64,000 nt of DNA from Chloroflexota bacterium (GTDB lineage Bacteria > Chloroflexota > UBA11872 > VXNJ01), in assembly GCA_965261345.1 (NCBI GenBank), contig OZ253449.1, positions 1,248,001 to 1,312,000 on the forward strand, written 5' to 3'. A program made the position numbers and the translations under genes. Shown here one piece after another: positions 53,327-55,564 of the stretch. The stretch's first letter is position 1, and each line of letters opens with the position of its first letter. The notes beneath the pieces are model-generated. The model was not told where the DNA came from. It saw nothing but the letters and a program-made list of their open reading frames with translations, and ran no database searches.

Positions 53327-53429
53327 CCGCCGCACCCAGCGCTACGTCCCAAAACCCGATCCGAAAGAGGACAACCTCGTAGCTAACATCAGGACGCTCG
53401 CCCTCTGTTACCCCCGCTTGTATCTTGAC

Positions 53430-53605
53430 TTCGGATAGTCCCGGGCGCGGCAGACCGAACCCCGCTAGGTTGTCGACAAACCGTGCCGTAGCGTGGTCGC
53501 CGCACCCGGATATCCCCTACCTGCGAGCCCGAACGATTGATTGGGCCGCCACTTCTGCGGCAGAGCCCGCATTTTGCAAGCGTGGGCGACCAGTAGGGGA
53601 TGCTA
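53430..53605 (+). ncRNA. IS110 bridge RNA
   Basis: Two stem-loops with internal guide loops matching the target (AACCCCGCT, GCCGTAG) and donor (ACGATTGAT, TTGCAAG); ends approximate. Confidence 0.8.
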
Positions 53606-53619
53606 ATGGAGTTTTGCAC

Positions 53620-54570
53620 ATGCACGACGCTGCGATATATGTGGGCATCGACGTCAGCAAGGACGGCGTGGACGTGGCCGCCGGATCCGGGGGCGCGGTA
53701 CGGAGGTTCGCCAACACCCCGGCCGGAGTCGGGAATCTGATAAGGCGCCTCAAGTCCTTGTTGGTGGCCCTGGTCGTACTTGAGGCCACCGGCGGCTACG
53801 AGGAGCGTTTGGCCGACGAATTGGACGACGCCGGTCATGCGGTGGCGGTGGTGAACCCGGGCCGGATCCGGAGTTTTGCCCGTTCGCTGGGGGTCCTGGC
53901 CAAGACCGACGCCATCGACGCCAGGATAATCGCGCGCTATGCCGAGGTGGTCAAACCCCCGGCAAGAGTCCAGCCGTCCAGGGCAGTCCGCACCCTGGCG
54001 GCACTGGTCGGCCGCCGCGACCAGCTGCTGGCCATGCAGGTCGCAGACCGCAACCGATTGGAGCTGGTCAGCGACCCGACCGTCCGAGGTGACATCCGCC
54101 GCGCGGTCGCCGGCTTCAAGCGGCGCATAACGACCCTGGACCGCAAGATCTCCGCCGCCATCGCCGCCGACCGCGAGCTCAAGGCCCGCGACGAGCTGCT
54201 GACATCGGTTCCGGGCGTGGGGCCGGCGTTGGCCTCGACCATGGCCGCCTACCTACCCGAATTGGGCAGCCTCGACAACAAGGCCATTGCCGCGCTGGTG
54301 GGGGTGGCGCCCTTTAACCGCGACAGCGGACGCTCCAGCGGCAAGCGGTACGTCTGGGGCGGCCGGAGCCAGATCCGGAAGGTGCTGTACATGGGAGCGC
54401 TGGTGGCCACGCGGCACAATCCGGCTATCAGGGCGTTCTACGAACGCCTGGTTGCGGACGGGAAGCCCAAGAAGCTGGCCCTGACAGCCTGCATGCGCAA
54501 GCTGCTGGTGATCTTGAACGCGATGGTGCGGCACGGCGAACTCTGGCGTGGGGAGCCCGTCTCGGACTAA
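53620..54570 (+). CDS. IS110 recombinase/transposase
   Basis: [24 protein letters not shown] (DEDD), [26 protein letters not shown]. Confidence 0.95.
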
Positions 54571-55564
54571 ACGCCTTGTAGGTCCCGACCGCTCTGCGAG
54601 CAAGGTCCCGGGCGAAGCCCTTGTCCGGGATCGGGCTCTCGCGGCGATTCCGCATCCGGTTACCGCTTCTCGATCGAGCCCGATCGGGGCTGCGTTCGCT
54701 ATGAACCGCGGTCGGGGCGCTGGATATCTCCTCCCCTATCTCCCCCGGACCCCTCTCATCCCACCTCTACGCATTTGACATTCAAGACGATTGCTATGGC
54801 TACAAGCGCATCACCGCCCTGCTTAAACGCTCGGGCTGGAAACTGAACCGCAAGCGGGTCCTGCGCATCTGGCGCCGGGAGGGACTATAAAGTCCCGATC
54901 CGGAGCGCCAAGCAGTCGCGCCGCTGGCTCGAGGGCGGGAGATCAACCCGCCTTATCTCCGAGCGTCCCAACCACGTCTGGGCCTACGACTTCGCCTACG
55001 CGCGCACCGAGGACGGCCGGCCCCTGCGGATCCTGACCGTAGTCGACGAGTTCACCCGCCAATCCTTAGCGGTAAGGGTCGAGCATACGTTCCCTGCCCG
55101 CGGCGTGATCGAGACAATCGCCGACCTCATGCTCGCCCACGGGGTCCCCGGGCACATCCGCTCTGGCAACGGTCCCGAATTTACTGCCCACAGCGATACG
55201 GAAATGTCTATCGGCAAATCAGGTCAAGACCGTCTACATCAAGCCCGGCGCCCCCTGGGAGAACGCCTATGCGGAATCGTTCATCTCCAGGCTCCGGGAC
55301 GAGCTCCCGACCGCGAGATCTTCTACACGCTCGTAGAAGCCAGGGTGATGCTGGAACGCTTCCGGATCGACTACAGCACCGTGCGTCCACACTCAGCGCT
55401 CGGTTACCTATCGCCCCTGGAAGCCATCGAGGCGGCGGCGTGAGGGATCAACTGCCGGTCGCAATCCGGCTGCTGCTGGCCGGCCCAAAAATCAGCCTCG
55501 CCGCCAACAAGACAATGTCTCAAACCAACTGGTACCAAAACCGGGGACCTGCCAATCGACGAAT

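Follow-up and report, generated by a model that had tools for sequence, protein, structure and literature searches.

The stretch of DNA analyzed here, referred to as the window, comprises 64,000 nucleotides of a Chloroflexota bacterium (assembly GCA_965261345.1, contig OZ253449.1, positions 1,248,001 to 1,312,000) and contains a 1377-bp insertion sequence (IS) of the IS110 family, here called IS-A, that splits the transposase gene orfB of an IS3-family element. In mechanism and membership, IS-A is an ordinary element of the IS110 group, whose recombinases are guided by a bridge RNA, and it has a notable class of target. We consider it probable that IS-A is a recently active, IS621-like bridge recombinase for which IS3 orfB, at the codons for Pro-Arg-Tyr-Gly (PRYG), is the main near-cognate site, and that this relationship is a loose one.

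IS-A interrupts an IS3 transposase gene

The window lies in a genome of 2.39 Mb (G000, compared below with the sister or related genomes G002, G003, and G005). In eight other IS3 copies of this genome, the sequence ACCCCCGCTATGGCTACAAGCGCATC is uninterrupted, and a contig of sequencing run X7, which belongs to another study, represents an empty site, joining position 53415 to position 54793 with exactly 1377 bp skipped. The same run also holds a contig with the occupied form of the site. The empty-site contig and the uninterrupted IS3 copies confirm the boundaries of IS-A, and with them the claim of an earlier note on this DNA that removal of 53419-54795 restores orfB; the coordinates proposed there for the junctions, guides, stems, and junction promoter also all agree with the sequence.

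A CT dinucleotide is present at both junctions (53417-18 and 54794-95), where the left flank ends in ACCCCCG-CT and the right flank begins with ATGGCTAC. CT borders all 3 IS-A copies in the genome as well as the copies of ISB, a sibling element discussed below. The presumed target sequence for IS-A at IS3 is CCCCGCTAYGGC. In an intact IS3 copy elsewhere in the window, the corresponding codons read H-P-R-Y-G-Y-K-R-I and fall within the N-terminal match to Pfam HTH_21 (53 bits), and the same copy also matches rve_3 (91.9 bits) and rve (48.2 bits). In the IS3 occupied by IS-A, the right remnant has no long open frame left. Other IS3 contigs in the sequencing data match from 53324 onward.

An IS256/Mutator-family transposase (51975-53270, minus strand; Pfam Transposase_mut, 350.6 bits) lies between an intron fragment and the left IS3 remnant. 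It has apparently removed the 5′ part of the occupied IS3, and an additional frame that overlaps it points to a frameshift.

The recombinase and its bridge RNA

By its sequence, the recombinase of IS-A is an IS110-family protein homologous to IS621. An N-terminal DEDD/RuvC-like domain matches DEDD_Tnp_IS110 (PF01548, 74.1 bits) and the C-terminal part matches Transposase_20 (PF02371, 71 bits), while the NCBIfam model for "IS110 family RNA-guided transposase" (NF033542) gives 210 bits against a cut-off of 140. Structures in the PDB that match are the IS621 transposase (8wt6, E = 8.8e-42, residues 6-306) and ISCro4 (9t56, E = 7.4e-44).

The gene is preceded by a left end of 201 noncoding nucleotides (53419-53619). 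Following the usage of Durrant 2024 (PMC11208160), we refer to the left and right target guides (LTG and RTG) and the left and right donor guides (LDG and RDG). In IS-A, the LTG is AACCCCGCT (53458-66) and the RTG is GCCGTAG (53485-91, or (T)GCCGTAG at 53484-91 as it stands in the loop), and the donor guides are ACGATTGAT for the LDG (53533-41) and TTGCAAG for the RDG (53574-80, within a loop side spanning 53570-80). The target loop is closed by the stem GCGGCAGACC/GGTCGCCGC, and the basal stem of the donor loop consists of ATCCCCTAC (53511-19) and GTAGGGGAT (53593-601).

For 24 distinct relatives, drawn from G000 and related genomes and having 43-100% protein identity to IS-A, we aligned the region 5′ of the gene, derived a consensus fold with RNAalifold, and then counted pairs, using an nhmmer profile for a census of further left ends. 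The consensus contains 2 stem-loops with 25 pairs. In the target loop, an outer stem (53442-56 with 53495-508) and an inner stem (53468-71 with 53479-82) flank the guides, and in the donor loop, this is done by stems pairing 53527-30 with 53584-87 and 53544-47 with 53565-67. Across the alignment, 96.7% of paired cells could form pairs, compared with 84.0 ± 0.9% in column shuffles (0/500 as high), and this value fell to 35-49% when the partners were slid by 1 to 3 columns. Two-sided, compensatory changes occurred at 14 of the 25 pairs. Helix 1, with 14 pairs, accounts for 8 of these and has 97.9% of its cells paired. In helices 3 and 4, which also show compensatory changes, pairing reaches 94-96%. 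The donor basal stem was omitted from these counts because it has no common columns in the alignment, which is poor there.

All 4 guides occupy internal loops of the consensus fold, the target guides in the first stem-loop and the donor guides in the second. The earlier note had made its reading depend on this placement, which holds in the fold of the 24 relatives and does not hold in the minimum free energy (MFE) fold of the single sequence. The latter (−87.5 kcal/mol, z = −3.18, with 2/200 shuffles equally stable) is a caveat, as it pairs the 2 target guides partly with each other, which is to be expected because both contain the core; the MFE fold differs from the conserved structure.

Guides match the flanks and the donor junction

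At the site in the window, the LTG of IS-A matches the left flank at 8/9 positions, and the reverse complement of the RTG matches CT plus ATGGC at 6/7 with one G:T. Similar correspondence extends to the relatives. Of the 24, 5 had no usable end and 2 had guides that duplicated others; these were set aside. The guides of the remaining 17 matched their own flanks at a mean of 4.41/7 left-hand and 4.65/6 right-hand positions, compared with 2.65 and 1.78 for mismatched pairings of guide and flank, and none of 20,000 permutations reached the observed value on either side. For ISC, another IS110 element of G000, the LTG matches its flank at 9/9 positions. We conclude that the insertion of IS-A in the window was guide-directed.

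The donor guides correspond to the element's own ends. In 21/24 relatives, the tip of the right end (RE) is the one place where the LDG 7-mer recurs, followed by CT, and the 3 misses have no findable RE in the stored locus. One donor base covaries between IS-A (ACGATTG) and its 71%-identical sibling ISB (ACAATTG), with the same base changed in both the guide and the end. The RDG reads GCAAG when the left end (LE) begins with T and GCGAG when it begins with C, and its fit past CTTG is imperfect, with 5 Watson-Crick pairs and 1 wobble out of 7 as read by eye.

Joining of the RE to the LE would build a promoter from TTGACA (54775-80), a 17-nt spacer, and TATCTT (53421-26). Of 21 relatives, 12 have a junction promoter at this 17-nt spacing that matches the −35 hexamer at 5 or more of its 6 positions and the −10 hexamer at 4 or more, and in 4 further ones it is apparently shifted by one base. 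No joint of an RE-LE circle is among the listed joints of 4 sequencing runs, which consist of contigs and are uninformative either way. The right noncoding end of IS-A is 225 nt long (54571-54795), which exceeds the need of the −35 box and the left donor.

That the matches between guides and flanks arose by chance, in a left end without a functional RNA, is extremely improbable. The single-sequence fold exceeds its shuffles by a modest margin, and the left end matches no bridge-RNA family in Rfam, where the sole match (sX15, on the opposite strand) is below threshold. Chance is contradicted by the covariation in the stems, by the identity of the LDG with the RE tip in 21/24 relatives, and by the outcome of the 20,000 permutations. 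The IS621-type architecture described in the earlier note is borne out by the protein homology, the 2-loop RNA with covariation, the matches of guides to both target and donor, the CT core, and the junction promoter. The features of IS-A and its host gene are listed in Table 1.

Table 1. Positions in the window of IS-A, its parts, and the remnants of the interrupted IS3 orfB.
Feature	Position	Strand	Basis or detail
Left remnant of decayed IS3 orfB (HTH_21 region), last codons ...Y-P-R(Y)	53324..53418	+	Alignment with 8 intact IS3 copies
Left target ACCCCCG+CT	53410-53418	+	Inside left IS3 orfB remnant
IS-A, 1377-bp IS110-family element, one CT core (54794-95) counted	53419..54795	+	3 genome copies; empty-site contig
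TATCTT, −10 half of promoter assembled only in the RE-LE circle	53421..53426	+	Read from sequence
Target-binding stem-loop	53442..53508	+	Consensus fold and pair counts, 24 relatives
Donor-binding stem-loop	53511..53601	+	Helices 3 and 4 by consensus fold; basal stem by sequence reading only
Recombinase gene, 316 aa plus stop	53620..54570	+	Pfam, NCBIfam, and PDB matches
Right noncoding end	54571..54795	+	−35 TTGACA 54775-80; left donor ACGATTG 54787-93; core CT 54794-95
Right remnant of the same IS3 orfB (G-Y-K-R-I-T-A-L-L... through rve), with stop and frame breaks	54796..55443	+	86% identity to 9 other IS3 copies

IS3 orfB as a landing site

The 11-mer specified by the guides, CCCCGCTAYGG, has 9 intact sites in G000, and 8 of these are the PRYG codons of IS3 orfB. 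Allowing two mismatches to the 14-mer gives 35 sites, among which 11 lie in IS3 orfB, from 3 IS3 subfamilies, and 3 are the RTG DNA of the IS-A copies themselves. Among the near-cognate sites that IS-A has in several copies in this genome, IS3 orfB is the principal one. The IS3 copies occur with both TAT and TAC at the tyrosine codon, and IS-A adjoins the TAT form at copy 1, the copy in the window, and the TAC form at copy 2.

Three copies of IS-A are present in G000, and because they differ by only 1 to 3 of 1377 nt, they are recent. The right flank of copy 2 begins with a 17-mer, ACGGTTACAAGCGCATC, that resembles the YGYKRI codons of IS3 (15/17 positions against the IS3 of the window, read by eye), after which the likeness to IS3 stops. 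Sequence of IS3 type is found at 2/3 of the right junctions and 1/3 of the left junctions, and copies with these guides do not sit mostly at unrelated sequences, the outcome that the earlier note had named as damaging to its reading. In contigs from runs X6 and X7, from two other studies, variants of IS-A are again followed by IS3 orfB, and one of these contigs spans both flanks.

Several observations weigh against IS3 as a dedicated target. Just 1 of the 3 copies, copy 1, lies cleanly within IS3. The left junction of copy 2 is in the transposase gene of ISC (after ...ALVATR), and copy 3 splits a gene encoding ...DPGYIKGYGPGIRENGGQYTHAA, which we take to be GH94-like, at a site with 4/14 mismatches by our own count. 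In G000, none of the 8 IS3 sites that match is occupied, nor are 3 variants of the site, and in the sister genomes G002 and G003, 0/8 IS3 copies are occupied (the other 3 sisters do not have this IS3). The guides fit IS3 at 12/14 positions, and the best match in G000, with 13/14, is outside IS3 and also unoccupied. This site, CACCCCGCTACGGC (window ~34420-34433, minus strand; genome 1282420-1282433), is single-copy and lies in no convincing gene; a perfect version of the guide-specified 14-mer is absent from G000. For the shorter 9-mer CCCCGCTAY, 8/32 sites are in IS3. The insertions in X6 and X7 may also go back to one inherited event rather than being independent.

These points bear on an alternative that we regard as rather improbable, namely that the guides evolved for another cognate of approximately AACCCCG-CT-ACGGC, perhaps a repeat of a former host, and that IS3 orfB is a multicopy off-target. 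The better fit of the non-IS3 site, the lack of a perfect 14-mer in G000, and the empty state of all 8 matching IS3 sites would be expected under this alternative, and it also draws support from the many relatives that target repeat-like CCCTCACCCnnnCCCT sites and not ISs, and from the off-target and half-match insertion of IS621 that is reported in a preprint (bioRxiv 10.64898/2026.08.31.748434). However, relatives often have mismatches at LTG positions 1 and 2 even where the site is clearly cognate, the 13/14 site is itself single-copy and empty, 2 of the 3 IS-A copies have right junctions of IS3 type, and ISB′, a sibling with different guides, also fits the same IS3.

It is unlikely that IS-A inserts at many loose CT sites and persists only in dispensable DNA, with IS nesting the product of such a filter. 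The window and the genome region at 134-149 kb are piles of nested ISs and introns, the occupied IS3 is decayed and divergent (86% identical to the others), and the 3 IS-A sites differ from each other, all of which would fit a survivorship effect. Yet the insertion is exactly at the guide-matching CT of IS3 and not anywhere in IS3, and the guides track the flanks across the clade, so that this kind of filter can add to guidance but cannot replace it.

With these alternatives considered, we continue to favor guidance to IS3 orfB as a near-cognate site. The proposal of the earlier note that the RNA is programmed for the IS3 PRYG codons is supported in a limited sense, as far as the 11-mer sites are concerned. 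The further claim that IS-A is a hyperparasite of IS3 was not established, given that 1 of the 3 copies is fully in IS3, that the matching sites are empty, that the guides fit IS3 at 12/14 positions compared with 13/14 at a site outside IS3, and that the same guides occur in 1/401 genomes. Dedicated hyperparasitism of IS3 by IS-A is plausible.

Copy 2 of IS-A and ISC are together at genome positions 146114-148474, where the 17 IS3-like nucleotides on the right are followed by an unrelated gene. The sequence around copy 2 points to a later rearrangement, in which a pseudo-target (CAACCCG-CT) probably mediated a deletion or recombination. The reciprocal product of this rearrangement was not found. 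Pieces resembling IS-A also occur at genome ~135442-135631, within the IS pile at 134-149 kb; they include 57 nt at 90% identity and an LTG-like AGACCGAACCCCGCTAG, and suggest an older, degraded fourth copy.

Among 401 genomes of the phylum, the same-guide pattern was found in G000 alone, in 3 places, and in none of the 400 others. A DNA search of 60 relatives returned nothing outside G000 above 86% identity (short terminal pieces only), and the longest matches were at ~70%. Metagenome scans with the RNA scaffold plus NNCCCCGCT, and with the left junction plus the LTG, gave 0 hits in a search that may leave out records near the element's own genome. A looser pattern run against the genome collection returned at least 117 stretches, 0/117 with an IS110 transposase by tblastn, and is uninformative on the occurrence of IS-A.

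Sibling elements and nested insertions

The nhmmer census recovered 13 bridge-RNA left ends in G000. Siblings of IS-A in the genus have 65-71% DNA identity and share its RNA scaffold and donor ends, with different target loops. ISB is present in 7 copies and has the LTG CCTGTACCT, which matches the left flank at 9/9 positions in 4 copies and 8/9 in one. A gene start or repeat as the nature of the ISB-cognate sites (CCTGTACCT|TTAAAG) was considered and rejected, as no frame continues across them and the flanks are single-copy.

ISB′, which shares its RNA scaffold with its sibling ISB, has the target guides CATTCCCCT and TAATGAAG. In both G000 and G002, it interrupts the IS3 family that IS-A occupies, 14 nt in from the left end, at a site that its guides fit. 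The G000 copy extends from genome position 142528 (minus strand) to 137890, has the left flank TGGCCTGCTCCCCT, and is apparently interrupted by ~3.3 kb of other DNA. The G002 copy (locus L021, 1483-2827) has flanks that match the guides at 7/9 and 7/8 positions. Two of the 5 distinct guide sets in G000 thus point into a single IS3 family, and the idea of parasitism on IS3 is better supported for this reason than by IS-A alone.

One ISB copy (14041-15392) lies between left-end sequences of IS3 and fits the guides of ISB′ (8/9 and 7/8) far better than its own (~2/7 and 2/5). Its flanks are inverted near-repeat sites of the IS3 end, rearranged. Possible explanations are that the locus was rearranged, that the ISB′ RNA guided the insertion in trans, or that the guides were converted later. 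The position of an ISB copy at an IS3 site cognate to ISB′ suggests that the bridge RNA of one sibling may be able to act in trans on a donor whose ends are identical.

Insertion into IS110 elements themselves was also observed. In G005 (locus L174, C18:219300-222400, minus strand), the tip of an IS110 left end holds a second IS110 element, whose LTG is GTCGTATCT. The site of this insertion, CTCGTATCT|TGATTACGGG, fits the left guide at 8/9 positions, and because the right guide fits poorly, it looks like a half-match insertion. ISC is nested in DNA encoding its own LTG, giving a tandem left-end start at genome 148466-148522 (minus strand). The second ISC copy was inserted right after CAATCCCCT in the LTG-encoding DNA of the first, which indicates that the DNA for an element's own LTG serves as a half-target.

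These elements are in turn interrupted by a 1.9-kb group II intron (Rfam RF02005, group-II-D1D4-6, 163 bits) present in ~9 copies with 73-96% identity. It splits copy 3 of IS-A (genome 819310-821236) and an ISB copy (269286-271217) at the same position of the transposase gene, corresponding to IS-A nt 1042/1045, and is antisense to that gene. The window itself holds a 3′ fragment of an IS110 (51365-51450, minus strand) that starts at the intron position and adjoins a 127-nt piece of the intron (51452-51578). Other copies of the intron are apparently located in IS3 orfA, directly after the codons MAKRKYSPEQ. A tentative extension, which we hold to be possible though doubtful, is that sibling bridge-RNA ISs of this genus have been naturally reprogrammed onto conserved sites in other mobile elements and that, together with intron homing, they form a multi-level web of RNA-guided parasitism.

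Comparison with known systems

IS621 targets repetitive extragenic (REP) sequences. Targeting of REP sequences by the IS110 family is also cited in the bridge-RNA papers. IS621 and the IS110 group (Durrant et al. 2024, PMC11208160; Hiraizumi et al. 2024, PMC11208158) resemble IS-A in having a homologous recombinase and a guide RNA 5′ of the gene. As in IS-A, the target loop of IS621 precedes the donor loop; the LTG reads as the top strand of the left target and the RTG as the reverse complement of the right target, both containing the CT core; the RDG fits the donor discontinuously; and a promoter is built across the RE-LE junction (PMC11208160). IS-A differs from IS621 in having other guides and another target, its best multicopy match being coding sequence inside another IS.

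The elements of the IS1111 group, as described in PMC11187229, are similar to IS-A in having a DEDD transposase and a specific target within another mobile element. They differ in having the guide RNA 3′ of the gene and subterminal inverted repeats, and their targets are noncoding ends or attC sites, not transposase coding sequence. All 4 guides of IS-A are 5′ of the gene, which places it outside the IS1111 group by this feature. According to citations in papers on the family, IS4321 and IS5075 target the inverted repeats of the Tn21 family, and other family members target attC. The targeting of mobile elements by the IS1111 group means that parasitism of mobile elements has precedent in the wider family. 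In the literature searched (IS110, bridge RNA, and IS3), no IS110 element aimed at an IS3 transposase gene was found, although the target tables of Durrant 2024 and Siddiquee 2024 may hold cases.

The Rfam match mentioned above is to RF02234 (sX15), on the reverse complement of the left end at 53436-53602, with 39.5 bits compared with a gathering threshold of 55. According to Schmidtke et al. 2012 (PMC3300014), sX15 is a Xanthomonas plasmid small RNA that has a complementary partner, asX7, and 10 homologs in a Stenotrophomonas chromosome. On account of this multicopy occurrence and the asX7 partner, sX15 is suspected to be IS-borne, and from the sequence match, the sX15 family may represent the antisense strand of an IS110 bridge RNA.

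Proposed mechanism and significance

Combining these observations, the transposition of IS-A would begin with an excised circle in which the joined RE and LE form a sigma-70 promoter, from which a bridge RNA of ~180 nt would be transcribed out of the left end. The donor loop of this RNA would pair with the circle junction ACGATTG-CT-TGTAT and the target loop with approximately CCCCG-CT-AYGGC, and the recombinase would then exchange strands at the CT core. Nearly all occurrences of this target in the genome are at the Pro-Arg-Tyr-Gly codons of IS3 orfB, within HTH_21, and IS-A would therefore be guided into IS3 elements, splitting the transposase gene. IS3 would thereby provide the main multicopy near-cognate landing site, one where insertion would have no cost to the host. 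The relationship would be loose, given the imperfect fit to IS3, the many empty IS3 sites, and the other near-cognate CT sites that appear to have been used or recombined. We infer that the G:T wobble may be tolerated and that the guides may have been selected for IS3.

The practical value of IS-A is modest, as it offers one more bridge recombinase for which guide and target are both defined, including a G:T position that occurs naturally. The siblings in the genus amount to a series of natural reprogrammings, and trans-guiding may have occurred among them. In the IS110 family, the target of every element is set by its own RNA; those described so far comprise REP sequences, attC sites, transposon ends, and short linear sites. 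If the reading proposed here is true, bridge RNAs that match a coding motif of a transposase would make other ISs usable as safe, self-renewing landing pads, and IS110 elements would inactivate the very ISs that they use in this way.

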